Source: a bacterium (GTDB lineage: Bacteria > Patescibacteriota > Patescibacteriia > UBA9570). From it: a DNA stretch of 64,000 nt. The DNA is taken from positions 44,726 to 108,725 of the forward strand of contig JAUYKW010000018.1 in assembly GCA_030698395.1 (NCBI GenBank). The letters are read 5' to 3'. Below, piece by piece: positions 5,865 to 55,679 of the stretch. The notes under the pieces are model-generated. The model was not told where the DNA came from and did no database searches. It saw only the letters and a list, made by a program, of their open reading frames with translations. How positions within the stretch are numbered: position 1 is the stretch's first letter; each line of letters opens with the position of its first letter. The position numbers and the translations under genes were made by a program.

Positions 5865-6018
5865 GTTCTGTCCTCTTCGTTATGGAGGGGTCTGGTTCTT
5901 ACGGCACTCTATGTCGTTGGCGCCACGCTCTTTTTTACTAGACCGGTTTAGGATAATGCCCTATTCCAAATCGTCGTGCTTTTTCGACAAATCCTTAACT
6001 CACCACAAGGGAGATAAC

Positions 6019-7166: not shown

Positions 7167-8093
7167 CTAAGTTATTTTTAAGAGCATTACGAATTGCTCG
7201 AATGCAGAAAAATATTTCTTCGGACGTAATGTTGTATTTTGGTATTCCAACATTACTTCTATCATATAATCATCATGTGTAAACAGAACTACTCGTGATG
7301 GAGAGCTGGTTGTTGTTTCTAACATTAATCCATTTCGTTGGGAGATTTCTGGAATTGATTCAAGAATGTTAGCATTAATATATTCTGGTCTGTATTTTTT
7401 AATCCAATCAAGTGTTGTAACAGTGTCATTTTCTGCTAGTGATATTGTAAGGCTAGCACTTTCTCGATCCTTTGTTTGTAATTTTATTTTGTCTGGACCG
7501 ACTGTATTTACTTCAAAATAGTCTTCATACTCAATCGATAACTCTCCAGCATTAGTATTGAATTGTCTTTCTTGCATTGCTACCGGGTGAGTTATTTTTC
7601 CGTAGGATATATTTTCATCATATGCAGACACCATATTAATATGAGAGCTATATACAACAACTAATACCATAAAACCAATTACAACTAACGCGCAAGCGCT
7701 AAAGAAATGTTCGCCAAAACTTAACTTATTAATTTTAGATTTTTCTTCAATAGTTATTACAGGTGTTTCATTGTCACTCTCAATAGATTCAATGGGTGCA
7801 ACAGAATCGATACTTTCTATCGGTGAAATTGGTTCTAATTCTAATTTTTCAACTATGGACTGTTTTTCTGGAACTGGTTTTGATTTCTTTTGTACTTTTT
7901 TCTTAGCAACAGGTTTCTTAACAACAGTCTTTTTTGTAGTAATTTTTTTAGGTGCTTTTTTAACGGCAATGCTTTTCTTCTTTTTATTAGCTGTAACCTT
8001 TGTTACTTTAGTCGGGGCTTTGGCTTTATTCTCTTTTGCCTTGCTGACTTTAGTATTTTTTGGTTTGCTTATTTTTTTTGTTATTTTTGCCAT
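7167..8093 (-). CDS. Membrane protein with an N-terminal lysine-rich histone-H1-like tail, one TM helix and a C-terminal extracytoplasmic domain
   Basis: The N-terminal roughly 75 aa are MAKITKKISKPKNTKVSKAKENKAKAPTKV...KKAPKKITTKKTVVKKPVAKKKVQKKSKP (KAPKK and KKPVAKK repeats). A short PIESI repeat follows. There is one hydrophobic helix, FSACALVVIGFMVLVVVY, and then a roughly 170-aa non-repetitive domain. Confidence 0.6.
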   Translation of the reverse strand: MAKITKKISKPKNTKVSKAKENKAKAPTKVTKVTANKKKKSIAVKKAPKKITTKKTVVKKPVAKKKVQKKSKPVPEKQSIVEKLELEPISPIESIDSVAPIESIESDNETPVITIEEKSKINKLSFGEHFFSACALVVIGFMVLVVVYSSHINMVSAYDENISYGKITHPVAMQERQFNTNAGELSIEYEDYFEVNTVGPDKIKLQTKDRESASLTISLAENDTVTTLDWIKKYRPEYINANILESIPEISQRNGLMLETTTSSPSRVVLFTHDDYMIEVMLEYQNTTLRPKKYFSAFEQFVMLLKIT

Positions 8094-8138: not shown

Positions 8139-10208
8139 CTACATTTTTTCTACAAGTTTTTCTGGAATATCTGCAATAAATCTAGAAGCACTTACAATTT
8201 TTGTAGTACCAAACACAGTTCGCTGATTAGCATAAATAAGATATGCTCGTTCACGGGCGCGGGTTAATGCCACATAGCATAGACGACGCTCTTCCTCCAT
8301 TTCTAGTGGTTGGAATAAACTTCTGGCATGTGGAAATAGCCCTTCTTCCATACCTGCAACGAATACGTTATTGAATTCTAAACCTTTAGCAGCGTGTACA
8401 GTCATCATAGTGACTGCATTGGTGCTTTCGTCAACATCATCTTGATCTGAAATGAGAGCAACTTCTTCTAAGAAAGAGTTGATGCCAGCTTGACCAGGTA
8501 AATGATCGAATTTTTTGGTAACTGATTTTAATTCTTCAATATTTTCTATGCGACGTTGATCTTCTGATAGCTTTGGTGAGAATTGATCAGTGTAGCCGGT
8601 TTTGTCTGCAATCATAGTTAGTAAATCAGACGGAGTTTTTTCTGGAGCTGCCGCAATAATTTCTTGCATGGTTTTTTGAAAATTTAAAAAAGCTAGCCTT
8701 TGCTTTTCTCTTAAGGGTGGTAATTTGGTTTCAGATAATTCAACAAAGGTTGCTTCATTATCTCTGCAGGCTTGTTCTATTTTTAGCCAGCTATTTCTGC
8801 CTAATGATCTGGCAGGTATATTATAAATTCGTTCTAAACTTACCCAGTCAGCCGGATTAGCTACTACTTTCATATAAGCGATGAAATCCTTAATTTCTTT
8901 GCGCTCGTAAAATTTAATACCACCGATTAAACGATAAGGGATATTGTATTTCATGAAAGTTTCTTCTAGAGCACGTGATTGAGCATTGGTTCTATATAAA
9001 ATCACATACTCAGCAAGGTTGATATCTCGTTTTTGCCTTTTAATAACTTCTTCTAGAGCTAGATCCACTTTGTAATCTTTGAAAGTTTGACTTTTCATAA
9101 TTTTATCCAAAATGGACTCATCGGCTTCTGCTATTTGAATAGGGGTATATGAAATATCGTCATTGTCTTTTGGTTCGTTATTGTCCGAAAAATCAAATAT
9201 CTCTCTGATAATGAATTCTCCTTCGAGTTGTTCGTTTTCTACCTCTTTTACGACAATTTTATGTCCCCTGTCATTATCCGTCCAAAGAACCTTTTCCTTT
9301 TGAGAGGTATTATATTTAATAACTTCGTTGGCTGCTTCTAAAATACGTTTGGTGGATCGATAATTTTGTTCTAGTAGCACAACAACTGCATCTGGGTAAT
9401 CATCTTCGAAGTCTAGAATATTTTGTAAATTAGCTCCTCGCCATGAGTAGATGGACTGAAAGTCATCTCCTACTACACAGATATTATGATGCTTATCAGC
9501 TAATTGGTGGACTAATGTATATTGAGCATGATTAGTATCTTGATACTCATCAACCAAGATGTATTTAAATGCTGCTTGGTATTTTTTTAATACTTCTGGA
9601 TGTTCCTGAAAAAGTTTTACTGTTAATTGAATCAAATCATCAAAATCAAGTGCATTATTTCGTTGTAATTCCCCTTGATATTTACTATAAACATGAGCAG
9701 CAGTTTTTTCGATAGTTTCACTTGCCTCAGCTTCGTATGCACTAACATCCTTTAAATCATTTTTTGCACTCGATATCATGTATTTAATTATTTTAGGTGC
9801 GATTACTTTAGTATCGTATCCTAAATCTTTCATACATTTTTTAATCAAGGAATCACTATCCGATGCATCGTAGATGACATAATTAGTATCGTATCCTAAG
9901 ATTTCAATTTCTCGTCTTAAAATTTGTACACAAATTGAATGGAATGTACCTACTACCGGTAATTTTTTTACTTTGCCTTTAAGTAACTTTTGTAAGCGAT
10001 CTTTAATTTCTCCAGCAGCTTTGTTTGTGAATGTTACTGCTAAAATATTCCATGGCTTAACATCTTCCGTTGCAATAATGTAAGCAATCCGATGAATTAA
10101 GGTTTTGGTTTTTCCAGAACCAGCTCCAGCTAAAATTAAAAGGGGTCCATTAGTTTGTTGGACCGCTTTGCGTTGTCTATCGTTTAGAGGGGCTAGTAAT
10201 ATATGCAT
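8139..10208 (-). CDS. pcrA: ATP-dependent DNA helicase of the UvrD/PcrA family (superfamily 1)
   Basis: The N-terminus is LNDRQRKAVQQTNGPLLILAGAGSGKTKTLIHRIAYII (Walker A, helicase motif I). Motif II is DEYQDTN. The C-terminus is UvrD-like (VTMMTVHAAKGLEFNNVFVAGMEEGLFPH). The start is most likely the Met at 10208 (MHILLAPLN). The ORF track extends it 13 codons upstream to 10247. Confidence 0.85.
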   Translation of the reverse strand: MHILLAPLNDRQRKAVQQTNGPLLILAGAGSGKTKTLIHRIAYIIATEDVKPWNILAVTFTNKAAGEIKDRLQKLLKGKVKKLPVVGTFHSICVQILRREIEILGYDTNYVIYDASDSDSLIKKCMKDLGYDTKVIAPKIIKYMISSAKNDLKDVSAYEAEASETIEKTAAHVYSKYQGELQRNNALDFDDLIQLTVKLFQEHPEVLKKYQAAFKYILVDEYQDTNHAQYTLVHQLADKHHNICVVGDDFQSIYSWRGANLQNILDFEDDYPDAVVVLLEQNYRSTKRILEAANEVIKYNTSQKEKVLWTDNDRGHKIVVKEVENEQLEGEFIIREIFDFSDNNEPKDNDDISYTPIQIAEADESILDKIMKSQTFKDYKVDLALEEVIKRQKRDINLAEYVILYRTNAQSRALEETFMKYNIPYRLIGGIKFYERKEIKDFIAYMKVVANPADWVSLERIYNIPARSLGRNSWLKIEQACRDNEATFVELSETKLPPLREKQRLAFLNFQKTMQEIIAAAPEKTPSDLLTMIADKTGYTDQFSPKLSEDQRRIENIEELKSVTKKFDHLPGQAGINSFLEEVALISDQDDVDESTNAVTMMTVHAAKGLEFNNVFVAGMEEGLFPHARSLFQPLEMEEERRLCYVALTRARERAYLIYANQRTVFGTTKIVSASRFIADIPEKLVEKM

Positions 10209-21537: not shown

Positions 21538-22910
21538 GAATCTTTTCTAATGATTGCTAAAATTTCATCTGTTTTAGCTCGCATGGTTTCTTCGTTGATA
21601 GATTCTAAATTTAGTCGTAATACAGATTCGGTGTTAGATGGTCTAACGTTGAACCAATAATCTTCATATTCAACCGTGATGCCATCTAGTTTAGATATAC
21701 TTTTGGCATCTGCTTCATAAATTTCTAAAAGTTTATTCATTATGCCCTCTTTATCTTTAACTGCAGAATTAATCTCTCCAGAATGAGCATATTTTCTGTA
21801 TGGTCGAACCTGATCTGCTACTGATTCTTCTTTACGGCTAAAGAATTTAAGAAGCATCATTGCTACAATAACAGGTGTTTCAAATACACCGAGTTCTGTA
21901 CGCATAAAAAAGTGTCCAGATGATTCGCCAGCAAATGCAGCCCCTTCTTTAATGGCTTGATCTTTAATAAAAGAATGACCAACCTTTGTAACAGATGGCT
22001 TTCCTCCGGCTGCTTCTATCATATCGCGAGTGATACGACCGGGTCGGATATCATAACAAATAGTAGAATTTGGTTCGCGTTCTAGCACTAGTTTTGCAAC
22101 CAATCCTCGAATGATAGCTGGTTCAATCATATTCCCTTCATTATCGATAAAGAATATTCTATCACCGTCTCCATCTGTTGCAATTCCTAAATCTGCACCT
22201 TCCTCAACTACACGTTTCATTAAGTCTTGATTATTTTCTTCTTTGAATGGATCTGCTTCATGCGCCGGCATATTACCATCGAGCTCAAAATTCATTTCAA
22301 TAAGTTCACATGGTAGGTGAGAGAACATGGCTCGAACATATGTACTTCCCATTGCATTTGCACAATCAGCAACAATCTTAAATGGGCGAATTCCTTCAGT
22401 ACCAACCCAATCAACTTCGAATTTTGTATGTTCTTCTACAATGCCACTTTGTTCTTCAACGTTGCCACCAGCAGTTGGTGCAGCGAAGTTATCAGCAATT
22501 ACTGTATCTCTGATCTCAGCAATACCATTTTCCATGCTTACAGGCTTTACTCCGGCACGCACAAATTTTAAACCATTAAATTCTTTTGGATTATGTGATG
22601 CAGTTACCATGATGCCACCATCGTAGGCATACTTTGCCACAGCATAATAAAAAGCTGGCGTAGATACGATGCCAACGTGCATAACGTGTAAGCCCTCATC
22701 AGTAAGCCCAGCTATTACTTGATCTTTAAGTGACGGTGATGACAAACGCATATCTTCACCTACTGCAACTGTAAGTAGTTTACCTGCGTTTTCTTTTTTT
22801 AAAAGCTGCGCATATGCTCGAGCAGTTTTATATGTAACTTCTTCGGTTAGTTCAGATCCGTAAATTCCACGAATGTCGTATGCTTTATAAATGTTACTTG
22901 CTACTTCCAT
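21534..22910 (-). CDS. Phosphoglucomutase / phosphomannomutase family protein (alpha-D-phosphohexomutase)
   Basis: Motifs: active-site serine loop TASHNPKEFNGLKF; metal-binding loop DGDGDR; sugar-binding GESSGH. Its start overlaps the gpmI start region by 4 bp. Confidence 0.85.
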   Translation of the reverse strand: MEVASNIYKAYDIRGIYGSELTEEVTYKTARAYAQLLKKENAGKLLTVAVGEDMRLSSPSLKDQVIAGLTDEGLHVMHVGIVSTPAFYYAVAKYAYDGGIMVTASHNPKEFNGLKFVRAGVKPVSMENGIAEIRDTVIADNFAAPTAGGNVEEQSGIVEEHTKFEVDWVGTEGIRPFKIVADCANAMGSTYVRAMFSHLPCELIEMNFELDGNMPAHEADPFKEENNQDLMKRVVEEGADLGIATDGDGDRIFFIDNEGNMIEPAIIRGLVAKLVLEREPNSTICYDIRPGRITRDMIEAAGGKPSVTKVGHSFIKDQAIKEGAAFAGESSGHFFMRTELGVFETPVIVAMMLLKFFSRKEESVADQVRPYRKYAHSGEINSAVKDKEGIMNKLLEIYEADAKSISKLDGITVEYEDYWFNVRPSNTESVLRLNLESINEETMRAKTDEILAIIRKDS

Positions 22911-24204
22911 ATTTTGATTTTAAAAATAAGACGATTGCTCCCGTAGCCCAAATAATGCCAAGTGCATTAACAAAAGTGCCAATAAAATTGTAAGGAAACG
23001 GAATGCTACCAAGAATTGTAGTTATTAAATAAAAAATAGTTATACCTACAACCATGGATAAATAAATATTTTTTTGCTTTGGTAATATTATTTTTCCAAT
23101 AGCTAATCCAACATAAATTTTTGCTAGAAATACTGTTGTTCCAAATATCAATACGCCAAGAATACTGAGGGGAATTCCAATTAAGGAAAAAAGCAACATA
23201 GCAATTATTAAAGGAACTATAACCACGTAACCAAAGCCCCAGGCAAAACAGATTCCAGCTTTAGATAGCATTAGTTTTTTTACGGCTAGTGATTTTTCTT
23301 TCAGTACTACTAAAACAACTACACCTAACATTATGTAACCGAGCAAGCTAATTATTTTCCTAAGAAAAAACCACACGGTAAAACGAGATTTTTGTTCTTT
23401 CGGTTCTACTAAGGGAGGTGAATATGATTCTGTACCATTTATATGTGCCGCCGGATCAATTGTTGCATGGTTTGCAGATGAATAAAGTACGTCCCCACTA
23501 ATTTTTGCAGTTTCATTTATTATTAGATTGTTTACACTTTGAAAATATACATCGTTACCAATAGTACCGTTGATAGTTGCATTACCTATACTGCCCGATA
23601 GCTTTCCATTAATAACTCCATTTAATGTTAAGTCTCCAGCTTGTATTATGGCATCACGACTAATAACTGCACCTTTTTTTAGGGTGACTTTTCCTGCAGC
23701 CACAGTAAGGCTTCTATTTATATCTTCATTGATAATTACATTGTTACCACCAACTCTAAGATCCCCATCTACTGGAGCATTGATAGTTACGTTGGCTCCA
23801 ACAGCCATTAAATCTCCATCAACTATTCCATTAATGGTTACATTGTTGCCGATTACAATTACGTCACTTTTAAAATGACCAGTAACATCGATTGTTTCGC
23901 TAGCTACAAAATAAACGTCTTCATATATCTTTAAAGTAGATATATTTGGTGTTTCATCTAAAAATGATGTAGTGTCAATATTTTTCTCTAGTTCTGGAAA
24001 TCCTGAATTAATAACTTCTTCCGAGGCAGGCTTGGCAAGTTGTGCAGCTAGTTGACCAGTAGCAGTTTCTTGGTCTGCGGAAAAATCATCTGTCAGTAGC
24101 GCTGCATCAGCTTTAGAGAACGAAAAAAACAGTACGCTTACAACGAGTACTGCTCCAAAGGTGAATAATAATGGGAGTGCTTCTCGAAACTCTTTCATTT
24201 TCAT
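22894..24204 (-). CDS. Membrane-anchored protein with a bactofilin-like (DUF583) beta-helical repeat domain and a C-terminal bundle of 4-5 TM helices
   Basis: It has an N-terminal signal or anchor. Repeated ...VTINGIVDGDLMAVGANVTINAPVDGDLRVGGNNVIINEDI...GKVTLKKGAVISRDAIIQAGDLTLNGVINGKLSGSIGNATINGTIGNDV... windings follow. The C-terminal third is hydrophobic. Start is at the Met at 24204 or 24258. Confidence 0.55.
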   Translation of the reverse strand: MKMKEFREALPLLFTFGAVLVVSVLFFSFSKADAALLTDDFSADQETATGQLAAQLAKPASEEVINSGFPELEKNIDTTSFLDETPNISTLKIYEDVYFVASETIDVTGHFKSDVIVIGNNVTINGIVDGDLMAVGANVTINAPVDGDLRVGGNNVIINEDINRSLTVAAGKVTLKKGAVISRDAIIQAGDLTLNGVINGKLSGSIGNATINGTIGNDVYFQSVNNLIINETAKISGDVLYSSANHATIDPAAHINGTESYSPPLVEPKEQKSRFTVWFFLRKIISLLGYIMLGVVVLVVLKEKSLAVKKLMLSKAGICFAWGFGYVVIVPLIIAMLLFSLIGIPLSILGVLIFGTTVFLAKIYVGLAIGKIILPKQKNIYLSMVVGITIFYLITTILGSIPFPYNFIGTFVNALGIIWATGAIVLFLKSKYGSSK

Positions 24205-24300
24205 AACCGGTATACTATACAGAATTTGTTCGATTTTGGCAAGCACTAATAAGGCCATTTTTAGGGCTAAAAAAGCACCAATTCTAGCAATAAAATATGG

Positions 24301-24996
24301 TTATTTTTTCGCGATAGTGATGATGTTTCTACCTAACTTTTGATCAGTTTTTTCGTTATTTGTAGAGTAGAAGTTGTCAGCATTTTTCCATGATGCATCA
24401 TCTAGCAGTTCATTTAGTTCAGGAATTGTGAAACCATGATAATAACGTTCTGCTAACACTTCTCCTTGTTCGTTTTTCCAAGGAACGATTGCATCACCAT
24501 TTTCGAATTCATTTGGAACATTCGTAAAGTAGTCAGGTAATGCTGGTTGATATAAATTCCAGTTCATCATAAATAAAGAACCTCCCGGTTTAGTAACTCG
24601 GGACATTTCCTGTAAAGCTTGAAGACGATATTTTTTCGATGGAATGTGCTGTAAGCTTGCAATCGCGATAGTGACATTGAACTCCTCATTGGCAAAAGGA
24701 AGTTCCAGCATGGATCCTTGAACTAGTTTAATATCAGGGTATAATTTCTTACCTTCCGTGATTAGTTTTTTTGAGACATCAAGGCCAGTATAGTAACCCT
24801 TGATTTTTTCTATAATTTCCGCTAGTCTGCCATTGCCACAACCAACGTCCAATACTTGATCTTCCGGTTTTACTAACTTATGAAGTAGTTGAAATTCCGG
24901 CCAATCATGTTGACGAGTTTGAGAAAAGTGTGGCGCAATTAAATTATAATCACTTTCAACTTTTTTTATCAATTTTTGAGCAAATGAATCAAGCAT
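24301..24996 (-). CDS. Class I SAM-dependent methyltransferase
   Basis: Motif I is VLDVGCGNGR and the motif post I is acidic. The length is 231 aa. Its substrate is not inferable. Confidence 0.75.
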   Translation of the reverse strand: MLDSFAQKLIKKVESDYNLIAPHFSQTRQHDWPEFQLLHKLVKPEDQVLDVGCGNGRLAEIIEKIKGYYTGLDVSKKLITEGKKLYPDIKLVQGSMLELPFANEEFNVTIAIASLQHIPSKKYRLQALQEMSRVTKPGGSLFMMNWNLYQPALPDYFTNVPNEFENGDAIVPWKNEQGEVLAERYYHGFTIPELNELLDDASWKNADNFYSTNNEKTDQKLGRNIITIAKK

Positions 24997-26534
24997 TACG
25001 GGACATTATTAATAAATCTATAAATCGTAGCGTAAGTGACGTTTTAAGTTTGCGGAGTGTAAAAGCAGAGGTGGCAAAAGAGTATGGCATCCATATGCCT
25101 ACTAATGCTAACATATTGTCCGAATACAAAACAATGATAGAGCAGGGCGATGCAGAGGAGGATATGATATTTATGCAGGTATTGCAAGTGAGAAGTATTC
25201 GTACTCTTTCTGGAATTGCTCCTATTACAGTACTTACTAAGCCTTATGCGTGCCCAGGTAAATGCATATATTGTCCATCTGAAGCGAATATGCCCAAGAG
25301 CTATATTGATACTGAGCCAGGTGCTATGCGGGCGTTGGCTTTAAAATTTGATCCTTATGAACAAGTTAGCAAACGTTTAACTGCCTTAGAAAGAAATGGC
25401 CATATTCCAGAAAAGTGTGAGTTGTTAGTTTTGGGTGGCACTTGGTCATCTTATCCGCATGATTATCAAGAGTGGTTCATGAAACGTTGTTATGATGCTT
25501 TTAATGAGGAGGAGTCTGAGACTTTGGCAGAAGCGAAAATTAAAAATGAAACTGCTAAATACCGAGTTATCGGATGTACATTAGAAACTCGCCCGGATTT
25601 TATTACAGAGGAAGAAGTAAAACGCTTACGATGGTTTGGCGCAACTCGAATGCAGATAGGAGTTCAATCTTTAAATAAACATGTATTAGAGCTGAATCGG
25701 AGAGAACAAACGAATGAACAAGTCCAAGTAGCTACGAAGCTTTTAAAAGAGGCAGGAATAAAAATTTCGTATCATATGATGCAAAATTTACCAGGCTCTA
25801 CTCCAGAAGGTGATTTACAGGATATTAAAACAATTTTTTCTGATCCTGGATATCAGCCTGATCATATAAAAGTGTATCCATGTGTAGTGGTTAAGTCTGC
25901 TCCGTTGTATCGACATTGGAAAGCTGGAAGATATAAATCTTATTCCCGAGAAGTGCTTACTGATTTGCTGATCAAGATTAAAAATGAAGTTCCATATTAT
26001 TGTAGGATTGAGCGTTTAGTACGAGATATTCCAGAAAATTCTATTGAAGGTGGAAATACCGTTACAAATCTACGACAAATGATGCAAGATAAGGGCGCAC
26101 AGTGTAATTGCATTCGTTGTCGAGAACCGCGCGCTGATACAACAGGAATAGAAGATGCAAAAATGTATGTTGATGAATACGAATCTGCTGACGGTGTTGA
26201 ATATTTTATTTCATTAGAAAATGATGATCGGACAAAGTTATTTGGCTTCGTGCGATTACGTTTACAAGATCGAGAACAACATTGGCTGGAAGAGTTGCAA
26301 GATTGTGCAATTATTCGAGAGTTGCACGTGTATGGTCAGTTGGTTCCAGTGGCAGCAAAAGGTAAGGCAGTTCAACACAAGGGCTTCGGTCGTAAGTTGA
26401 TGGTTGCCGCAGAAAAGATTGCTCAAGAACAAGGTGCTAAAAAAATAGCAGTAATTGCCGGAGTTGGAGTGAGAAAGTATTATGAAAAATTGGGTTATCA
26501 GTTAGATCAGGAATACATGATAAAATCACTTTAG
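24984..26534 (+). CDS. Elp3-family radical-SAM / GNAT protein (bacterial homologue of the elongator catalytic subunit; putative tRNA wobble-uridine modifying enzyme)
   Basis: The N-terminal region has KAEVAKEYGIHMPTNANILSEY. A radical-SAM cysteine cluster is present (CPGKCIYCPS). The C-terminal GNAT has QHKGFGRKLMVAAEKIA, matching the Elp3 QHxGxG acetyl-CoA motif. The start is uncertain between 24930, 24984 and 25095. The earlier starts overlap the divergent methyltransferase 5' end. Confidence 0.75.
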   Translation: MNQALRDIINKSINRSVSDVLSLRSVKAEVAKEYGIHMPTNANILSEYKTMIEQGDAEEDMIFMQVLQVRSIRTLSGIAPITVLTKPYACPGKCIYCPSEANMPKSYIDTEPGAMRALALKFDPYEQVSKRLTALERNGHIPEKCELLVLGGTWSSYPHDYQEWFMKRCYDAFNEEESETLAEAKIKNETAKYRVIGCTLETRPDFITEEEVKRLRWFGATRMQIGVQSLNKHVLELNRREQTNEQVQVATKLLKEAGIKISYHMMQNLPGSTPEGDLQDIKTIFSDPGYQPDHIKVYPCVVVKSAPLYRHWKAGRYKSYSREVLTDLLIKIKNEVPYYCRIERLVRDIPENSIEGGNTVTNLRQMMQDKGAQCNCIRCREPRADTTGIEDAKMYVDEYESADGVEYFISLENDDRTKLFGFVRLRLQDREQHWLEELQDCAIIRELHVYGQLVPVAAKGKAVQHKGFGRKLMVAAEKIAQEQGAKKIAVIAGVGVRKYYEKLGYQLDQEYMIKSL

Positions 26535-26615
26535 ACCAAAAATTCATTAATTTGAGGACTATTATAGTATTTGGTAGGGGTGGAATTGCATAGCTAGTAA
26601 TAAGATATTTATCTG

Positions 26616-26624
26616 TGCTACAAT
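26616..26624 (+). promoter_or_regulatory. Extended -10 promoter element upstream of glyA
   Basis: TGCTACAAT (TGn-extended -10) sits 33 nt upstream of the glyA ATG. Confidence 0.4.
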
Positions 26625-26657
26625 AGGGATGAATTAATCATTTATTCATAAATTTTC

Positions 26658-27899
26658 ATGTTAGAACACCTCAAAAAACAGGATCCAGACTTAGCTGGAT
26701 ATATCGAAGGGGAGCTAGAGCGACAGCGAACTAATTTAGAGTTGATTCCTTCGGAAAATTTTGTATCTCCAGCAGTATTAGAAGCTTTAGGTAGTATTTG
26801 TACGAATAAATATTCGGAAGGTTATCCAGGAAAGCGTTATTATGGTGGTCAGGAATGGATCGATAAAATTGAACAGTTAGCAATTGATAGAGCAAAGGAC
26901 ATATTTCAAGCCGAACATGTGAACGTTCAGCCGTTATCTGGTGCACCAGCAAATTTGGCTGTATATACAGCGCTATTAGAACAAGGAGATACGGTATTAG
27001 GAATGGATCTTTCACATGGTGGTCATCTTACTCATGGTCATCCGGTTACATTCATGGCTAAGGTGTACAATTTTGTTCGTTATAAGACAGGTGCTGATGG
27101 CTTGATTGATTTTGATAATTTACGGGAGATGGCTTTAGAGCATAAACCAAAAATGATTCTAGCTGGTTTCTCTGCTTATTCTCGAGATTTAGATTATGCT
27201 AAGTTCAAGGAAATTGCTGATGAAGTAGGAGCTCTTACGATGGCTGATATTGCTCATATTTCTGGATTGATCGCTGCTGGAGAATTAAATAATCCAGTGC
27301 CACATTTTGATGTTGTATCTACCACCACTCATAAGACTTTGCGTGGTCCTCGGGGTGGCATGATTATGTGCAAAGCAAAACATGCCAAAGCGATTAATAA
27401 AGCAGTATTCCCAGGATTGCAGGGTGGCCCACATGAAAATCAGATTGCAGCTTTAGCAGTTGCTTTAGGTGAAGCTCAACAGCCAGAGTTTAAAGATTAT
27501 GCTGCTCAAATTCGGAAGAATGCAAAAGTATTGTGTAATAAATTGCAAGAAGCTGGATTGAAAATAATGTTTGGAACTACTGATAATCATCTTATTTTGG
27601 CAGATGTTACACCGCTTGGAATTACAGGTAAGATCGCGCAGACAGTTTTAGATGAAGCTCGCATGACACTTAATATGAATATGATTCCGGATGATCCACG
27701 ATCACCAATGGATCCATCTGGTATTAGGTTAGGTACACCCCCTGTCACAACCCGCGGAATGAAAGAACCGGAGATGGAGCAAATTGCTGAGATGATGATC
27801 CGTGTTTTAACTAATCATGAAGACGAGTCTGTAAAAGAGGAAGTTCGGCAGGAAGTGAAAGCTTTAACCGATAGATTTCCACTTTATCCAGGCATGTAA
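26658..27899 (+). CDS. glyA: Serine hydroxymethyltransferase
   Basis: Motifs: LELIPSENFVSPAVLEALGS; PLP-lysine region TTTHKTLRGPRGG. Length 413 aa. Confidence 0.95.
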   Translation: MLEHLKKQDPDLAGYIEGELERQRTNLELIPSENFVSPAVLEALGSICTNKYSEGYPGKRYYGGQEWIDKIEQLAIDRAKDIFQAEHVNVQPLSGAPANLAVYTALLEQGDTVLGMDLSHGGHLTHGHPVTFMAKVYNFVRYKTGADGLIDFDNLREMALEHKPKMILAGFSAYSRDLDYAKFKEIADEVGALTMADIAHISGLIAAGELNNPVPHFDVVSTTTHKTLRGPRGGMIMCKAKHAKAINKAVFPGLQGGPHENQIAALAVALGEAQQPEFKDYAAQIRKNAKVLCNKLQEAGLKIMFGTTDNHLILADVTPLGITGKIAQTVLDEARMTLNMNMIPDDPRSPMDPSGIRLGTPPVTTRGMKEPEMEQIAEMMIRVLTNHEDESVKEEVRQEVKALTDRFPLYPGM

Positions 27900-28961: not shown

Positions 28962-30827
28962 ATGAATAAAAAAAAATATCAAGCTAAATTTGATGCTTTC
29001 ATAAAAAGGCATCCATTATTGTTACCAGTTATTGTTTCAGTTTTATGTGGATTGGTGTTATTAATTATTGCATTAAAATCTAGTGGTTCAGATTGGTTTT
29101 TTTCGGAGGTGTTAGCGGAGACAATCTATTCAGCAATTGTCTATCATCATGAGTTTCCATTTTTTTCTTACTTTCTAAATGGTGGAACACCTTTTATTCA
29201 AGATCCACAAGGGCCATTATTATCTATTAGTACGTTATGGATTTTGATATTTGGGCCTTGGGGTGGCTTAAGATTTGCCGCATTTTTTTGGGGATTTATC
29301 GGTACCTTTTCCTGCTGGGGGTGGCTAAGACCTAAATTAGGAAGTGGGCCAGCGTTAGTTTCTGCTACTGCCTGGATTTTGAGCATGGGTTTCTTTTGGC
29401 GTTTAGTAGTTGGTCACGATATGTTCTTGTGGCACTTAGCATTACCATTATTTTTAATAGTTATTGAAAAGTTAATATTTAAACCAACATGGAAGAATAG
29501 TATATTACTTGGATTGCTAACTGGATTATTTATCCTCGGACCATCATTACATTCACTTTTATATTTTATTATCCCAGCTGTAGTAATCTGGTACGTGGTG
29601 TTGTTGGTTGGTAATCACAAAAGAATAGCTATTAAGAATATATTTCTATTTTCAGCAATGGCTATTGTTATAGCATTAGCAATTGCATCACCAAAAGTTG
29701 CTGCATGGTCACGGCTAGATATGGTGAGAGAGACACAGAGTGAAAGTGCAATGTATTTAAAGGATGCTTTAATATCAATTGTTGACACTCAAGTTAGATC
29801 TGATCGTGGGTATTTGCTGGACGAGAAGTATGAGCGGGAAAGTTGGGGTATTTGGGAAAGTAATGTTGCCGCAACACCAATAATTCTTACATTAGCAATA
29901 TTAGCGCTTTTCATAGTAGCTTTCAAAAAAGAAAAACCAAATAGTTTGTTCATTTTTTCTATTACACTGTTTTTTGTAGGATTATTTATTGCGACAAACT
30001 CTTGGTTTTGGCAAGTATTTAGAGAATTATCGAATGGTAGTTTTAGGGTATCAGGCAGATTTTTAGGATTAGCTAATTTTTCAATAATTATCTTAGCGGG
30101 TATCGCAACAAAGTATTTGACAGGAATTGTCTCAAAAAAAATTCCTCATTTATCTGCAATTTTTATATTATCAACATTTGTTTTTAGTGCATTACTGATC
30201 TATCAAGCGAGCGTGACATTATCACCATATGTAAGTTCTGGAGGTAATATCCTTAAGCCAATCACAGCTATCTGGAATCATTCAAAAAAGAAAACTGACT
30301 CACCCATGTTAACAGGAGTAAATCATTATTATTATGATCAGGAGATAGAAGCAAATCAAATTAGTTCTGGTAACCTATATTTATTATATGGTCATAAAAT
30401 AATTGGAGATTCTGTTTCTGAAATACCTCTTGATGATTTTATGAAGATATTACCGAATAAAGATATAGAAATTCCAGTCTCACCAGAATTATCACCAGAT
30501 CGTTTAGAAGTATTTCATACTAAATTAGTGATTAGTAATTTACAGCCATTGGAAGAAGTAAACATCAGATTAAAGGTTGCACCATTAGGACAGGAAATTA
30601 TCACAGAACCTAGCGGGGCTAATATCACATTAGAGGAAAATGCAGGCACAATGACATTAATTAATAATGAGAATTACTTAATAGAAAAAATTACGATAAA
30701 ACCAAAGTCTCCTGTACCAGTAATAGCATGGATAGTGTCAATATTAACGTTAATAGCCTCTATAGGCTATCTAGTGGCCAAATCTGGAATTAGTGCTAGA
30801 ATAAGGTTTCAAAAAAATAAGGCATAA
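28962..30827 (+). CDS. Polytopic membrane protein (at least 10 TM) with a C-terminal extracytoplasmic domain; putative GT-C-fold glycosyltransferase
   Basis: It is 621 aa. The N-terminal two-thirds are multi-TM and a soluble C-terminal domain of about 180 aa ends in a final TM. It sits immediately upstream of a Dpm1-like GT2. It could not be assigned to a named family by eye. Confidence 0.45.
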   Translation: MNKKKYQAKFDAFIKRHPLLLPVIVSVLCGLVLLIIALKSSGSDWFFSEVLAETIYSAIVYHHEFPFFSYFLNGGTPFIQDPQGPLLSISTLWILIFGPWGGLRFAAFFWGFIGTFSCWGWLRPKLGSGPALVSATAWILSMGFFWRLVVGHDMFLWHLALPLFLIVIEKLIFKPTWKNSILLGLLTGLFILGPSLHSLLYFIIPAVVIWYVVLLVGNHKRIAIKNIFLFSAMAIVIALAIASPKVAAWSRLDMVRETQSESAMYLKDALISIVDTQVRSDRGYLLDEKYERESWGIWESNVAATPIILTLAILALFIVAFKKEKPNSLFIFSITLFFVGLFIATNSWFWQVFRELSNGSFRVSGRFLGLANFSIIILAGIATKYLTGIVSKKIPHLSAIFILSTFVFSALLIYQASVTLSPYVSSGGNILKPITAIWNHSKKKTDSPMLTGVNHYYYDQEIEANQISSGNLYLLYGHKIIGDSVSEIPLDDFMKILPNKDIEIPVSPELSPDRLEVFHTKLVISNLQPLEEVNIRLKVAPLGQEIITEPSGANITLEENAGTMTLINNENYLIEKITIKPKSPVPVIAWIVSILTLIASIGYLVAKSGISARIRFQKNKA

Positions 30828-35073: not shown

Positions 35074-35496
35074 ATGAAACAGTTTATTAGTCAGTTTGTA
35101 AAATTTTGTATTACGGGAACAATCAATGCTGGCATTGATTTCTTAGTATATTTAGGGTTAACGCGCTACTTTGATTTTTGGGAAAATCGTTTAGTCATGG
35201 CCACCGGAGTTGCGTTTGTGATAGCAAATATCAATAGTTATATCATGAATAAATACTGGACATTTCGAGATCCTAACGGTAGGCACAAAATACAATATCC
35301 AAAATTCTTTGCAGTTTCATTGGTTGGTTTAGCAATAAACTTAGCTGTCTTTTATTATCTAGTTCATGTATTAATGATAGACGACATTCTTAGCAAGGTA
35401 ATAGTTGCAGCAATTGTATTAGTATGGAATTTTTTCGCGAATAAATTTTGGACTTTTATTAAGCCAAAAAAAGATTTATTGGAATCTAAAAGTTAA
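35074..35496 (+). CDS. GtrA-family small membrane protein (polyprenyl-phosphate sugar handling / flippase-like)
   Basis: It is 140 aa with four TM helices and the GtrA signature FVKFCITGTINAGIDFLVY...NKYWTF...NKFWTF. Confidence 0.8.
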   Translation: MKQFISQFVKFCITGTINAGIDFLVYLGLTRYFDFWENRLVMATGVAFVIANINSYIMNKYWTFRDPNGRHKIQYPKFFAVSLVGLAINLAVFYYLVHVLMIDDILSKVIVAAIVLVWNFFANKFWTFIKPKKDLLESKS

Positions 35497-36615
35497 TTAG
35501 CCTTGATAGGTTAGAAATAGTATTTTACGTACTACTCGTGCTTCTGGTCGGGAGTAAAAAATTGGTTCATGAAATTGTGAGTAGTTTAGTTTTGTATAAT
35601 ATTTTGCCAGCGGTAATGTCAAAGTATCATCATGTCTGCGCCATGCTGGTACAGCCAATACTATTCTGGCTTGAGGAGCAAGAATATCTGTAAGTGCTAG
35701 AAATGTTTCTTCATATAACTTGATCATTTGGCGATGAACTTTATCTGTTTTCTTTGGTCGCAGCGGTCCCAGATATCCTTCAGCGACAACTCTATTTATT
35801 GACTCTTTTCCTAAAATATTTTTAATATCCTTAACATCACTAACATGTAATGGAATTTTTGGTAGGTTTAACCATGCCAGATTATCTGTTGTGTCTAAAA
35901 TACTTTTCTTCGAAATGTCGGAACCTATTACATTTTTGTAGCCTGATAATAGAGCTTCCTGCAATATAGTGCCTGATCCGCAAAAGGGATCTAGAATAGT
36001 ATCATCTAAATTTGGTTGTGAAATATTTATCATCATTCTAGCGATTTTTGGTGGGAGCATTCCAGAATGATGATCTCTTTGTGGTCTGCCGTAATCTCGT
36101 TTTGAAAAATCTCTGAATGGTTGTACTGAGGTGGTGCGAGCTAATAAAATACTCTTATTATAAAGCACTAAACAAAAATCTGTTTGGTTATCTAACAAAT
36201 GTTCTTTTTGTACAATTACAGAAGACAGCGCTGGTTCTTTACTACTAACATATCTAATTGATTTACCGGTAGCTCTGACTTCTTTTTTCCAGTCTATCCC
36301 TATGCGTTCTAATTTTTTTGCGTAATGCTTTACTATATTATCGGTCATGGCATTTTCTCCTGCATAAACACTAAAACCAAACCTAATTTTATTTTCTCCT
36401 GTTAAGTATTTTTTAAAAATATCCAAGCCCGCTAAATCACGGGATATTTCATCAACGACTGTACATATTTTTATGGTACCTCCTAAGATATTAATGTCTA
36501 CATCATTAGAAAGTTCTGCTATATTTCCGCCAGACCATTTTTTCAAAACATTAAGTGATTCTAATTCTAATGCTGAGAGATCTGGTGTAGTACCAAGAAT
36601 TGCTATTTGTTTCAT
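35497..36615 (-). CDS. Putative SAM-dependent methyltransferase with a Trm11/RlmL-like (UPF0020) catalytic domain and an N-terminal non-catalytic domain
   Basis: Motif I is ILDPFCGSGTILQEALLSGY, preceded by HSGMLPPKIARMMINI, a pattern seen in N2-guanine RNA methyltransferases. I could not find a clear DPPY motif IV. Start is at the Met at 36615 (MKQIAILG) or 36636. Confidence 0.45.
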   Translation of the reverse strand: MKQIAILGTTPDLSALELESLNVLKKWSGGNIAELSNDVDINILGGTIKICTVVDEISRDLAGLDIFKKYLTGENKIRFGFSVYAGENAMTDNIVKHYAKKLERIGIDWKKEVRATGKSIRYVSSKEPALSSVIVQKEHLLDNQTDFCLVLYNKSILLARTTSVQPFRDFSKRDYGRPQRDHHSGMLPPKIARMMINISQPNLDDTILDPFCGSGTILQEALLSGYKNVIGSDISKKSILDTTDNLAWLNLPKIPLHVSDVKDIKNILGKESINRVVAEGYLGPLRPKKTDKVHRQMIKLYEETFLALTDILAPQARIVLAVPAWRRHDDTLTLPLAKYYTKLNYSQFHEPIFYSRPEARVVRKILFLTYQG

Positions 36616-37550
36616 ATACGATTGTTTTGATACCATGAGGCAAATTTATTTAAACCTTCTTCTAGACTTGTAGTTGGTTTAAAGTTTAAAAGTTTTTTTG
36701 CTTTATCTATATTAGCGTATGTTTGATGAACGTCACCTGGTTGCATGCCAACCTGTTTAATGATTGCAGTTTTACCAGTAACTTTTTCTACAGTAGCAAT
36801 GAAATCATTTAACGAGATTGGTTCATTATTTCCTAGGTTGATAATTTCATAAGGAAATGGATTTTCTACGGCAGCTTTTACACCCTGTACTATGTCTGCT
36901 ATGTAAGTATAATCTCTACTAGTATTTCCATCACCAAATTTTATAATTTCCTTTTCTTTTAGAATTTTTTCTGTAAATAGATATGGAGCCATGTCTGGCC
37001 TACCACGTTCACCATATACTGTGAAGAATCGTAGGATGGTAGTTTGAATGTTGTGCAAATGATGATTGGTATAAAGCATTAGTTCAGCTGCTCGTTTTGT
37101 AGCTGCATATGGAGAAATCGGCTCATTAACATTTACATCTTCTGAAAAAGGCACTGTCGTAGTATCTCCGTAAACCGCGGAAGTTGATCCGAAGATAAAA
37201 CGATTTACATTATATTCCATCGCTAACTTTGCTAAATTTGTTGTGCCTAGTAAATTTACTTTCGCATATAAATCTGGTTCTAGCAAAGATGATCGGACAC
37301 CTGCACGAGCTGCCAAATGAATTATCAGATCAAATTTATGATCTTTAAATATTTCAGTTAGAGCTGTAGAATCTGTAACATCAACTTGATAAAATTTTTC
37401 TGGTCGTAATAATGCTAAATTTTCTTTTTTGAATTCTGGATTATAGTAATCATTAATATTATCAATAATTACAACGTTATGATCAGCTTGTAGAGCTTCT
37501 ACTATATGAGAGCCAATGAAACCAGCGCCTCCGGTTACTAATATATTCAT
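36612..37550 (-). CDS. NAD-dependent nucleotide-sugar epimerase (extended SDR; UDP-hexose/hexuronate 4-epimerase-like)
   Basis: Motifs: ILVTGGAGFIGSHIVEAL; catalytic YAATK. Length 312 aa. Confidence 0.8.
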   Translation of the reverse strand: MNILVTGGAGFIGSHIVEALQADHNVVIIDNINDYYNPEFKKENLALLRPEKFYQVDVTDSTALTEIFKDHKFDLIIHLAARAGVRSSLLEPDLYAKVNLLGTTNLAKLAMEYNVNRFIFGSTSAVYGDTTTVPFSEDVNVNEPISPYAATKRAAELMLYTNHHLHNIQTTILRFFTVYGERGRPDMAPYLFTEKILKEKEIIKFGDGNTSRDYTYIADIVQGVKAAVENPFPYEIINLGNNEPISLNDFIATVEKVTGKTAIIKQVGMQPGDVHQTYANIDKAKKLLNFKPTTSLEEGLNKFASWYQNNRI

Positions 37551-37582: not shown

Positions 37583-37831
37583 TCACCTTTTCTTAATAAC
37601 GAGCATCATAATACCAGCTATCATCGATAAAGCAATACTAAACCATGTAAATGCCCATGCAGCAAAAGCTCTTTGGTGAGCTAAAATTTGATCTTCATAA
37701 TATGGATCTCCTAATAGAGTGGTATCTTGCAAGGTGGCTAAATAGATAATATAAATAGCAGTTAGCGCAATTAGTGCAGTGATTACCCACATAATAGATG
37801 AAAAAATCTTATTTTTAAGGTTTGAGGTCAT
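37583..37831 (-). CDS. Small two-TM membrane protein, hypothetical
   Basis: It is 82 aa with two hydrophobic helices. It overlaps the start of the upstream GT-C-like gene by 17 bp and is co-oriented with it. Confidence 0.4.
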   Translation of the reverse strand: MTSNLKNKIFSSIMWVITALIALTAIYIIYLATLQDTTLLGDPYYEDQILAHQRAFAAWAFTWFSIALSMIAGIMMLVIKKR

Positions 37832-39383
37832 AAATAACGTATGATGTATTTTCGTAAATAACAGGATAATATTCTGATTTGTTTGTACTCCAGATACTTT
37901 TATAAACCGGTGAATCTTTACTAATAATGAAGTAACTAATACCTAGCTCAGCAATATTGGATGTATTTCTTTCGTTTTTTGGTTTAGCAATAATAGTATA
38001 CATTGCATGAAGTCTTTGATAAGTTGGGTTTTCTGGTTGATTGATAATTTCGGAAAATGGAGAAGATGGATTAAGAACATTAAATTTTTGTATATCACGA
38101 TGATTTAAACTGTACCATGGGTAATAAATAGTATGGCCAGAGTACCATAATGGAGCATGGAGAATTTCTTGATTAGTTGCGCTTTGGACACCTAATAACC
38201 TGCCAGTATGATTCGTATCATCTAGCCATTCAAGCGCTTCAGCAAAACCATCATGTGGTCGATAGCGGAAAGACCACCCTTCGATATCATCTTTCATAAA
38301 CACTACGGCATGAGTTGCTTGTGCACCTACAATTAAAACTGCAAACAAGACAAATACAATAGGTGTAAATTTTAAATACTTTCGTAATTCTACTAAGCCG
38401 AAACTTGCAAAAATAGCCAGACTTATCCAAGCAAAAGGAATGAATCTGTTAGGTAGGATGCCAATTCCAAACAATGGTAGGTGGCCTAGAATTATAGGTA
38501 CTAGCAACATGATTAGAAGTAACCATTTTATTTGTTTAGTTATTTTTGATAAACCAAAAACTAAACCAACTCCTGCTAGCATTGTAATTAAGTATCCCCA
38601 AATTGCTGGATGATCCCAAATTGGATGATAAAAACCAGGCAGACTATTATTTATGAAGTAGCCGATCATACCTTTGATAGACACAGGAAATATAGCTAAT
38701 GTAAAATCAAGCACTAAAACAATAATTCCAGTAGTAATTAGACCAATTTTTATTTTCCATGATTTTATATAAAAAAGAACAAACCATGAGGAAAATACAA
38801 TTGCCGCAATGCCGAAAGATAAATCATGAACGAGAGCTAGTAGGCTAAATGGTGACAAAGCAAAAGCGATCCATCGATGTTGCTGTTTAGTGATGGCCAA
38901 AATAGCAAAAATAATACAAAAAATAATTAGCATATAACCAAATAGATTTTGCGGAGTCAAAACTAATGACCTTATTAGAGCAGGAGACAAAGCAGAAAAT
39001 AATCCAGCAAATAGAGCAATGGTTGGAGATTTACTTAATAACCAGCCTATTAACCAAACTCCTACAACGCATGCCAAAAAAGCTAGACCACCTGTTAATA
39101 ATAATAGATGATGACTTTGGATGGGCAATATTTTTAATAATCCTGCATGGATGATTTGTAGAACAGGATAGGTAGATGGTCGCCAACACATTTCATAACT
39201 ATTTCCGGTTAATGAATAAGTACTGAACTCACCGGTTTCGGCTAATACTTTGGCTCCGCAGGCTAATCCACTAGCATCTGGCGTGATGGCAAAATCATTC
39301 CAATATAGTGATATGAAAACTAAAAATATAGCCACTATTGCTACAATACTTAAGCTGAGGGTGATTTTTAATTTTTTATTCAT
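37815..39383 (-). CDS. Polytopic membrane protein, putative GT-C-fold glycosyltransferase (PMT/ArnT/YfhO-like architecture)
   Basis: It is 522 aa with about 12 TM helices. The first extracytoplasmic loop carries acidic residues (TPDASGLACGAKVLAETGEF). The C-terminal soluble domain is about 150 aa. It sits divergent from a polyprenyl-P GT2 plus DUF2304 pair. Confidence 0.45.
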   Translation of the reverse strand: MNKKLKITLSLSIVAIVAIFLVFISLYWNDFAITPDASGLACGAKVLAETGEFSTYSLTGNSYEMCWRPSTYPVLQIIHAGLLKILPIQSHHLLLLTGGLAFLACVVGVWLIGWLLSKSPTIALFAGLFSALSPALIRSLVLTPQNLFGYMLIIFCIIFAILAITKQQHRWIAFALSPFSLLALVHDLSFGIAAIVFSSWFVLFYIKSWKIKIGLITTGIIVLVLDFTLAIFPVSIKGMIGYFINNSLPGFYHPIWDHPAIWGYLITMLAGVGLVFGLSKITKQIKWLLLIMLLVPIILGHLPLFGIGILPNRFIPFAWISLAIFASFGLVELRKYLKFTPIVFVLFAVLIVGAQATHAVVFMKDDIEGWSFRYRPHDGFAEALEWLDDTNHTGRLLGVQSATNQEILHAPLWYSGHTIYYPWYSLNHRDIQKFNVLNPSSPFSEIINQPENPTYQRLHAMYTIIAKPKNERNTSNIAELGISYFIISKDSPVYKSIWSTNKSEYYPVIYENTSYVIYDLKP

Positions 39384-40660: not shown

Positions 40661-41710
40661 ATGAAAAAAGCATTACTAATTGGAATCACAGGACAAGACG
40701 GATCTTACTTAGCAGAACTATTATTAGACAAAGGCTATGAAGTTCATGGTACAATGCGGAGATCTAGCCAATTTAATACTGGACGAATTGATCACTTGTA
40801 TAAGGATCCACATTTAAATGGAGTAAGACTTTTTTTACATTATAGTGATTTAACTGATGGAAGTAATTTAGCTAGATTAATTAGAGAAATTAAACCAGAC
40901 GAAATTTATAATTTAGGTGCTCAAAGTCATGTGCGGGTTAGTTTTGATATTCCGGAATATACAGCTATGGTGACTGGATTAGGAACGCTTAAAATTTTAG
41001 ATGCGATTCGCGATGTAAAAAAGGATACAAAGTTTTATCAAGCATCAAGTTCAGAGATGTTTGGTTTAGTACAGGAAGTACCACAAAAAGAAGATACGCC
41101 TTTTTATCCAAGATCACCATATGCAGTGGCTAAAGTTTATTCATACTGGATTACTAGAAATTACCGGGAAGGATATGATCTTTTTGCTAGTAATGGTATT
41201 TTGTTTAATCATGAATCACCCCGACGTGGAGAAACATTCGTAACTAGAAAGATAACCAGAGCTTTATCTAAGATAAAATTGGGCATCGATAAAAAATTGT
41301 ATTTGGGCAACATGGATGCAAAACGTGATTGGGGATATGCTCCTGATTATGTTGAAGCTATGTGGATGATGATGCAACAAGATAAACCAGATGATTATGT
41401 AATAGCAACTGGGGAAACTCATTCAGTGCGAGAGTTTGTAGAAGTTGCTGCAAAATGTTTGGATATTGATGTTATTTGGGAGGGTAAGGGAGTTGATGAG
41501 AAAGGCTATAATAAAAAAACGGGAGAGGAAATTGTTAATATAGATCCTAAATATTTTCGACCAACTGAGGTTGATTTATTAATTGGTGATTATTCCAAAG
41601 CTAAGAAAGATTTAGGTTGGGAACCGAAAGTTACTTTTAAAGAGCTAACTCAAATCATGATAGATGCGGATTACGATTATTATGTACGCGAGAAAGGACA
41701 TATAAAATAG
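40661..41710 (+). CDS. gmd: GDP-mannose 4,6-dehydratase
   Basis: Motifs: [29 protein letters not shown]; [19 protein letters not shown] (catalytic YxxxK); [10 protein letters not shown]. Length 349 aa. Confidence 0.9.
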
Positions 41711-55675: not shown

Positions 55676-55679
55676 AATT

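Follow-up and report, generated by a model that had tools for sequence, protein, structure and literature searches.

In eukaryotes, it is textbook knowledge that Elp3 acts before Trm9 in the modification of the wobble uridine (U34) of tRNA. In archaea, 5-methoxycarbonylmethyluridine (mcm5U) has been demonstrated in Haloferax, where it depends on Trm9 and Trm112 (PMC6144793), and the Elp3 and Trm9 genes of Sulfolobus are clustered (PMC2584109). As for bacteria, an Elp3 is known from Dehalococcoides mccartyi (PMC6367351), and a 2020 review regards bacterial Elp3 as confined to Dehalococcoides (PMC7663514). According to a 2017 review, homologues of the methyltransferases that partner with Trm112 are undetectable in bacteria, and Trm9 orthologues occur only in Sulfolobales and Halobacteriales (PMC5372719). 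Here we analyze a 64-kb stretch of a contig from an uncultured patescibacterium (JAUYKW010000018.1; hereafter the window), in which a gene for Elp3 lies head-to-head with a gene for a class I S-adenosylmethionine (SAM)-dependent methyltransferase. This pair is probably a bacterial Elp3/Trm9-type module for the modification of U34.

The plus-strand gene was confirmed to encode a full-length Elp3, and formation of 5-carboxymethyluridine (cm5U34) is predicted from its sequence. Its product matched the NCBIfam model TIGR01211 (“Elp3”) over model positions 2 to 522 with 523.3 bits (curated cutoff, 350) and contains the Pfam domains Radical_SAM, Radical_SAM_C, and GNAT (Acetyltransf_1, 28.6 bits; cutoff, 20.7). 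It aligned nearly end-to-end with the solved structures of MinElp3 from M. infernus (6ia8; 2e-115) and DmcElp3 from D. mccartyi (5l7j; 5e-106), while eukaryotic Elp3 structures were matched at about 1e-95. The linker Zn-site cysteines, which are conserved in bacterial and archaeal Elp3 (PMC6367351), are present, as are the radical-SAM and acetyl-CoA-binding motifs. The methyltransferase-adjacent bacterial Elp3 proteins (loci L001 to L083) and DmcElp3 share the cluster spacing CPGxCxxC (Cx3Cx2C), whereas in archaeal MinElp3 the motif reads CPHGKCIFC (Cx4Cx2C) and is followed by an additional insertion. Like archaeal and eukaryotic Elp3, the window protein possesses a long N-terminal extension and can be aligned to MinElp3 from residue 23 onward; the Pfam model ELP3_N (basic N terminus for tRNA binding) scored 20.5 bits, under its cutoff of 27. 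The domains and motifs thus bear out an earlier note on this DNA, made from the letters alone, that had proposed an Elp3-type radical-SAM plus GNAT protein. Its remark that Elp3 is rare in bacteria holds among cultured species but not for metagenome-derived genomes of Patescibacteria and Dehalococcoidia, where Elp3 is common and already named as such by the NCBI pipeline.

The minus-strand product matches the Pfam families Methyltransf_11, Methyltransf_25, and Methyltransf_31 (Methyltransf_11, E = 7e-20). A homologue search with this protein returned ~65 proteins of the Candidate Phyla Radiation (CPR), then haloarchaeal methyltransferases, probably Trm9 orthologues, and eukaryotic TRM9/ALKBH8; the exceptions among the named homologues beyond the CPR were three weak matches that had been labeled automatically as UbiE/MenG type. 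Three alignments were used: A1 including eukaryotes, A2 restricted to the CPR, and A3 combining eukaryotic Trm9/ALKBH8 with the haloarchaeal relatives. With profile A2, the top match in the Protein Data Bank (PDB) was Yarrowia Trm9 (5cm2_Z; 1e-22, 83.8 bits; runner-up, 71 bits), and hhalign joined A2 to A3 over 203 columns with a probability of 100% and E = 7e-45. The N-terminal motif Y-x2-IA-x-HFS-x-TR-x2-PWP, common to eukaryotic TRM9/ALKBH8 and the haloarchaeal relatives, reads YNLIAPHFSQTRQHDWP in the window protein, and the further Trm9 signatures DVGCGNG, HH/QH, W-x3-Q, VPW, RYYH, and a C-terminal N are also found in the alignment. Columns H117, W146, Q150, W173, R184, Y186, and N224, which are invariant or nearly so in A1 and A2, correspond to H116, W145, Q149, W168, R241, Y243, and N271 of ScTrm9. 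Substitution of ScTrm9 R29, D72, H116, W145, W168, R241, Y243, or N271 by alanine abolishes or strongly reduces activity (Létoquart et al. 2015, PMC4678810). All eight positions are kept in the window protein (R28, D73, H117, W146, W173, R184, Y186, and N224), as is Y17 (ScTrm9 Y18), and 50 of the 53 Elp3-adjacent homologues, the window included, retain at least seven of nine signature residues. An AlphaFold model of the protein (pLDDT 94) has a Rossmann-like fold. It is thus largely supported, at the level of sequence, that the methyltransferase is Trm9-like rather than UbiE-like and a true relative of Trm9; the alignment against Trm9/ALKBH8-type enzymes that the earlier note had called for places it with these enzymes and their haloarchaeal relatives.

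To sample the locus more widely, we scanned metagenomes with alignment A2 (80 loci) and genome contigs with a single Elp3 protein (4 loci, 2 of which are cut off at the Elp3 5′ end). Wherever both genes were present (52 loci), they were head-to-head, and Elp3 is adjacent in 53 of 68 loci with enough flank (window included); among the remaining 15 are truncated copies and also some intact Trm9-like genes. Looking from the Elp3 side, the pair was found in 7/7 loci. Four of these are long CPR contigs with Elp3 51 to 57% identical, all with a divergent Methyltransf_11 gene 0 to 25 nucleotides (nt) away. The other three are from Dehalococcoidia: D. mccartyi CP019867 and two further contigs (L090 and L091) with the same layout, each encoding a methyltransferase of 218 to 224 amino acids (aa) divergently from Elp3, with a spacer of 43 to 101 nt. 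In D. mccartyi (CP019867.1, ~567.4 to 569.5 kb; L089:3283-5380), the 224-aa Trm9-like methyltransferase lies 43 nt upstream of Elp3 and was aligned by hhalign to the CPR profile with a probability of 99.9 and to Trm9/ALKBH8 with 99.1. Hence, the organism of the bacterial Elp3 structures itself carries the pair. Across 40 complete loci, the pairwise identities of Elp3 and the methyltransferase correlate at r = 0.89, a value reached in 0 of 2,000 permutations, which argues that the genes are inherited together, and the recurrence of the arrangement in 52/52 and 7/7 loci argues against a chance juxtaposition. Contrary to the reviews, these data point to a genuine bacterial Trm9 family, welded to Elp3 across much of Patescibacteria and in Dehalococcoidia. 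The idea of a two-enzyme Elp3 and Trm9-type module, as voiced in the earlier note, is therefore well founded; rather than clustering with small-molecule methyltransferases, the enzyme groups with Trm9, and the adjacency is kept across deep divergence. That the pair had been acquired together is unproven; its base composition resembles that of the window (G+C of 0.36 and 0.38 for the two genes, 0.35 for the window) and its synteny is conserved, so any transfer must be ancient.

A few loci depart from the compact arrangement or carry unexpected labels. The pair is split by an insertion of 0.5 to 1.7 kb in L001, L012, L043, and L024; the insert in L001, the closest relative of the window with 80% Elp3 identity, measures 755 nt (9195-9949). 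Two loci, L002 (CAZSXL010000016.1) and L004 (CAYLOJ010000034.1), are labeled “uncultured Gammaproteobacteria,” although their Elp3 is 74% identical to that of the window, and look like mis-binned or mislabeled Patescibacteria contigs. We also considered an archaeal (DPANN) origin, with TATA boxes, for the AT-rich loci with a CATG junction and rejected it at least for the lineage of L018, which is bacterial in that it encodes MurE above cutoff. A mevalonate kinase gene lies beside MurE in L018.

The following course of reactions is proposed. Elp3 alone, as in archaea, would carboxymethylate U34 at C5 in a subset of the tRNAs by means of its radical-SAM [4Fe-4S] cluster and GNAT-bound acetyl-CoA, yielding cm5U34. 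The divergently encoded Trm9 orthologue would then methylate the carboxyl group of cm5U34 with SAM, and the resulting methyl ester would be mcm5U34 or, where a 2-thiolase acts too, 5-methoxycarbonylmethyl-2-thiouridine (mcm5s2U34). In Patescibacteria and Dehalococcoidia, the two genes would be passed on together.

The junction between the genes was compared in 51 loci with homology-guided start codons. The two ATGs share two bases (CATG) in 14 loci, form CATATG in 7, are separated by 1 nt in 2, and lie in overlaps of 13 to 47 nt in 5, the window included. The spacing is ≤5 nt at 29/51 junctions, representing 19 of 30 clusters at 70% Elp3 identity, compared with 8/63 of the remaining divergent neighbor pairs in these loci (median, 163 nt; Fisher p = 7e-7); those inside the window are 38 to 260 nt apart. 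With zero or negative spacing, any promoter must sit inside the coding sequence of the partner. As the start codons typically abut or overlap, the transcription signals of each gene may thus be located within the first codons of the other, and both mRNAs are probably leaderless or short-leadered in an organism essentially without Shine-Dalgarno (SD) sequences. SD-like sequences were seen at only ~3 of 53 window genes, and inspection of the start context revealed none for the methyltransferase, as for most window genes. TATAAT-like boxes are frequent 6 to 15 nt upstream of starts (e.g., genes at 15316, 32181, 52472, and 54464), which suggests that SD-independent initiation on short-leader or leaderless mRNAs is widespread in this organism. 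In 11 compact loci (L011, L016, L018, L020, L021, L028, L030, L038, and others), a TATAAT precedes the Elp3 ATG by 45 to 47 nt. The D-Y-N codons, which are invariant in the methyltransferase (GAT TAT AAy; window 24943-24950), create the palindrome TTATAA and with it a perfect TATAAT on either strand; in L019, L023, L029, and L042, where Y is encoded by TAC, a TAAAAT precedes the Elp3 ATG by 23 nt instead. The candidate box on the methyltransferase side of the window (TAATAAT) would imply a leaderless or near-leaderless mRNA. Since both candidate −10 boxes are confounded with coding constraint (for the Elp3 box, the conserved DYN), a bidirectional promoter is something we infer. Together, these loci offer a natural case of divergent genes with abutting or overlapping starts in organisms that lack SD sequences.

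How far the two genes of the window overlap depends on the choice of start codons. For the methyltransferase, no ATG, GTG, or TTG other than ATG 24996 occurs from the preceding stop codon to the conserved region. The longest Elp3 open reading frame (ORF; 24930-26534, plus strand) encodes 534 aa from GTG 24930 and would overlap the methyltransferase by 67 nt; the best-supported pair of ATGs, judged from homologous sequences, gives a 13-nt overlap, the letters of the junction being ...TTGAGCAA-ATGAATCAAGCAT-TACGGG... (Elp3 ATG, 24984-24986, plus strand; methyltransferase ATG, CAT at 24994-24996). Either choice, like the 53-nt gap from TTG 25050, agrees with the earlier description of head-to-head genes whose starts overlap or are at most about 100 bp apart. 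If Elp3 truly started at TTG 25050, the overlap would be a start-codon artifact, and a normal 53-nt spacer would accommodate both promoters. One public gene call (P0083, 494 aa) does begin this same Elp3 there, at residue 23, tblastn matches to distant Elp3 homologues begin only at residue 27, and the ELP3_N match is subthreshold. This start is nonetheless unlikely: the TIGR01211 alignment already starts with residue 8 of the 516-aa protein, favoring ATG 24984; residues 1 to 16 are kept in close homologues, mostly by synonymous changes (L002 MTQALRDIITKSIERS vs. window MNQALRDIINKSINRS); the ATG equivalent to 24984 is the sole ATG, GTG, or TTG upstream of the conserved Elp3 region in L016, L018, L031, and L041; and abutting or overlapping junctions are seen again in the 29 loci mentioned above.

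With respect to function, an ordinary small-molecule methyltransferase (UbiE/MenG/BioC-like) or an enzyme for another unrelated substrate could stand beside Elp3 through local synteny alone. The models that Pfam and NCBIfam have for the protein are all generic or of the quinone type, public annotation calls it “class I SAM-dependent methyltransferase” or “UbiE,” and a single-sequence PDB search scored the generic 3l8d and 3sm3 slightly over Trm9. However, the NCBIfam scores are far under their cutoffs (DVU_1556 family, 60.1/155; MenG/UbiE, 59.6/158; BioC, 37.4/185), the family profile and hhalign both lead to Trm9/ALKBH8, the Trm9-specific N- and C-terminal motifs and every essential residue are retained, and the adjacency extends down to ~25 to 30% methyltransferase identity in two bacterial phyla, which makes this explanation highly improbable. 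Several observations weigh against an mcm5U34 module. Trm9 of eukaryotes and Haloferax needs Trm112, and a Trm112-like ORF was found neither in the 64-kb window (small ORFs inspected by eye, no profile) nor among the Pfam-scanned conserved neighbors. The position of ScTrm9 Y243 is variable across the wider methyltransferase family, and Foldseek ranked the uncharacterized archaeal methyltransferase 3sm3 first and Trm9 second (TM 0.84, target-normalized), with METTL6 close behind, so the fold alone does not discriminate among class I methyltransferases. The window contains no tRNA gene and no Rfam match. A sigma-70 and terminator scan of 24200-26700 performed at chance (8 promoter sites vs. 8.4 expected in shuffled sequence), which lends no support to the compact bidirectional promoter suggested in the earlier note; the strongest match (minus strand, 24972-24943, 11/12) was rejected as a methyltransferase promoter because it sits in the coding sequence of this gene, downstream of the start. 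Finally, the 2020 review found no evidence for xcm5U derivatives in bacteria and describes DmcElp3 as weakly active in vitro (PMC7663514). The pair might then act on U34 but produce another xcm5 derivative, or the methyltransferase might work at a different step or atom. In keeping with such a pathway, cm5U does not build up in Haloferax trm9 or trm112 mutants, so that pathway details are lineage dependent (PMC6144793), the N-terminal motif of the Dehalococcoides methyltransferase has diverged, Q takes the place of ScTrm9 H115 in the window protein, and the failure to find a Trm112 nearby points the same way. We consider a product other than mcm5U quite unlikely, as the proposed binders of the cm5U carboxylate and uracil ring (equivalents of R29, H116, R241, N271, and W145) are all conserved and thus speak for a substrate and a chemistry identical to those of Trm9.

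Returning to the Elp3/Trm9-type module, it is tempting, though doubtful in its entirety, to go further and assume that the CPR and Dehalococcoidia decode with an mcm5(s2)U34 of the eukaryotic and archaeal kind made by a self-sufficient, Trm112-free Elp3-Trm9 pair that replaces MnmE/MnmG. In this extended form, the pair would be a zero-spacer unit sharing CATG, with promoters in the first codons of the partner (e.g., the D-Y-N TATAAT) and leaderless, SD-less mRNAs enforcing coexpression. No MnmE or MnmG gene was found in the 64-kb window. The module yields a testable prediction, mcm5U34 in bacterial tRNA, gives a likely function to a family now annotated just as class I SAM-dependent methyltransferase, and may provide biochemistry with a Trm112-independent Trm9.

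The window is of bacterial origin, as it encodes UvrC, UvrD, RNase J, MurD, glutamate racemase, cofactor-independent phosphoglycerate mutase, phosphoglucomutase (PGM), serine hydroxymethyltransferase (SHMT), and YchF, and the nearest relatives of both proteins are found in Patescibacteria/CPR genomes, e.g., Kerfeldbacteria. A 454-aa membrane protein without a Pfam match at E ≤ 0.01 is encoded downstream of the methyltransferase (22894-24258, minus strand); its homologues in L085, L086, and L088 have precomputed DUF8173 hits, with a faint bactofilin match in one. The order PGM/phosphomannomutase-DUF8173-methyltransferase-Elp3 is kept in three of the four long CPR contigs described above, with SHMT a few genes further on in one of them. 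We also looked for a third conserved gene of the system, such as Trm112 or a thiolase, by all-vs.-all clustering of neighboring ORFs, but apart from antisense shadow ORFs, the clusters reflected nothing more than synteny specific to certain lineages. In 11 loci (L018, 10976-11233, and 10 others), the methyltransferase gene is followed by a conserved 85-aa ORF similar to EF-Tu domain 2, often together with SLOG/LOG-like and MgtC genes; this ORF is probably a case of lineage synteny and is not Trm112. It was rejected as a system part on these grounds, as were the SLOG/LOG-like protein, MgtC, a uracil-DNA glycosylase, and a truncated AsnRS-like gene. Directly downstream of Elp3, L018 (7273-8277, minus strand) and L030 (7040-8191, minus strand) encode a 334- to 383-aa protein whose similarity is confined to the catalytic core of AsnRS/AspRS or archaeal-type asparagine synthetase A, an anticodon-binding domain being absent.

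Elsewhere in the window, a large surface-glycan cluster (30831-56501) encodes several GT2, GT1, GT4, and GT87 glycosyltransferases, epimerases, and an FkbM methyltransferase, in addition to the enzymes listed at the end of the table; sulfotransferases are unusual in a small-genome CPR bacterium. A 379-aa RMKL/UPF0020-like methyltransferase (35497-36636, minus strand), also matching N6_N4_Mtase, may represent either an RNA m2G methyltransferase of the Trm11/RlmKL type or a DNA methyltransferase; Trm11 is another eukaryotic partner of Trm112. Seven large ORFs (308 to 828 aa) remained without a Pfam match (E ≤ 1e-6): 1671-3083(−), 3170-5656(−), 5836-6987(+), 7167-8093(−), 28962-30827(+), 37815-39383(−), and 44575-46554(−). 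The product of 28962-30827(+) resembles a polytopic membrane protein.

Table. Coordinates of the gene pair, its sequence motifs and candidate signals, and selected genes of the glycan cluster (window numbering)
Feature	Position	Strand	Remark
Trm9-like class I SAM methyltransferase (predicted tRNA cm5U34 carboxyl methyltransferase), 231 aa	24301..24996	-	ATG start; from ORF list
Elp3 (radical-SAM + GNAT, predicted tRNA U34 carboxymethyl synthase), 516 aa	24984..26534	+	In-frame ATG 24984
13-nt overlap of both coding 5′ ends, ATGAATCAAGCAT	24984..24996	.	From ATG 24984 and ATG 24996(-)
Trm9 N-terminal signature DYNLIAPHFSQTRQHDWP (Y17, H23, R28, W32)	24898..24951	-	A1/A2; Y17/H23/R28 = ScTrm9 Y18/H24/R29
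SAM-binding motif I, LDVGCGNG	24829..24852	-	Invariant, as is acidic D73 (= ScTrm9 D72)
Trm9 catalytic/substrate residues H117 (LQHIPS), W146/Q150 (NWNLYQ), W173 (IVPWK), R184-Y185-Y186 (ERYYHGF)	24430..24654	-	A1/A2
Methyltransferase N224 (C-terminal N)	24304-24333	-	= ScTrm9 N271
Elp3 radical-SAM cluster motif CPGKCIYC (Cx3Cx2C), residues 90-97	25251..25274	+	Aligned to MinElp3/DmcElp3 cluster loop
Elp3 linker cysteines CNCIRC, residues 374-379	26103..26120	+	Aligned with CRCIRC of MinElp3 and DmcElp3
GNAT acetyl-CoA-binding motif QHKGFG (Q/RxxGxG), residues 464-469	26373..26390	+	Kept in 39/40 Elp3 examined
Candidate −10 box TATAAT for Elp3	24945..24950	+	34 nt upstream of ATG 24984; in methyltransferase codons D16-Y17-N18; putative
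Candidate −10 box TAATAAT for methyltransferase	25005..25011	-	Ends 9 nt upstream of ATG; in Elp3 codons 8-10; putative
GDP-mannose 4,6-dehydratase	40661-41710		Glycan cluster
Two sulfotransferases	48722-49573, 51583-52479		Glycan cluster
STELLO-like glycosyltransferase	53496-54467		Glycan cluster
GtrA	35074-35496		Glycan cluster
ABC-2 exporter	54464-56501		Glycan cluster

Compared with the eukaryotic pathway, in which Elongator and Trm9/ALKBH8-Trm112 produce mcm5U34 and mcm5s2U34, the window encodes the same two catalytic proteins, with the same domains, Trm9 signatures, and ScTrm9-essential residues. It differs in having no Elp1, Elp2, or Elp4 to Elp6 with the pair and no Trm112 detected nearby, in the lack of the insertion that eukaryotic Trm9 has between “VPW” and “RYYH,” in the Cx3Cx2C cluster motif of Elp3, and in the physical head-to-head coupling of the two genes. 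The target atom, C5 of the wobble uridine, is also that of MnmE/MnmG (with MnmC), which make 5-(carboxymethyl)aminomethyluridine or 5-methylaminomethyluridine, (c)mnm5U34, and the decoding role at NNA/NNG codons is presumably the same (PMC7663514), while the enzymes and chemistry are unrelated.

The reference for bacterial Elp3 is DmcElp3 (PDB 5l7j), which likewise stands alone, shares the cluster motif CPGKCIYC, and has a divergent Trm9-like gene upstream. Unlike the window Elp3, DmcElp3 (459 aa) lacks the N-terminal extension and aligns only from window residue 72, the N-terminal motif of its partner methyltransferase has diverged, and the Dehalococcoidia genes are set apart by their spacer, with no overlap. 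A survey of the literature on Elp3 or Elongator in Patescibacteria/CPR gave nothing relevant, while the 2016 DmcElp3 paper could still mention the neighboring methyltransferase. The archaeal Elp3 and Trm9 (H. volcanii HVO_2888/HVO_1032 with Trm112; the S. solfataricus cluster) likewise function without other Elongator subunits, and the long N-terminal extension is shared with archaeal MinElp3. In contrast to the archaeal pairs, the host here is a bacterium, with MurD, glutamate racemase, UvrC, and RNase J, and the divergent orientation of the two genes is fixed, their start codons abutting or overlapping. Since the clustering of archaeal Elp3 and Trm9 genes has already been published, the pair in the window represents a bacterial extension of a known pathway; its less expected part is the conserved zero-spacer gene architecture.

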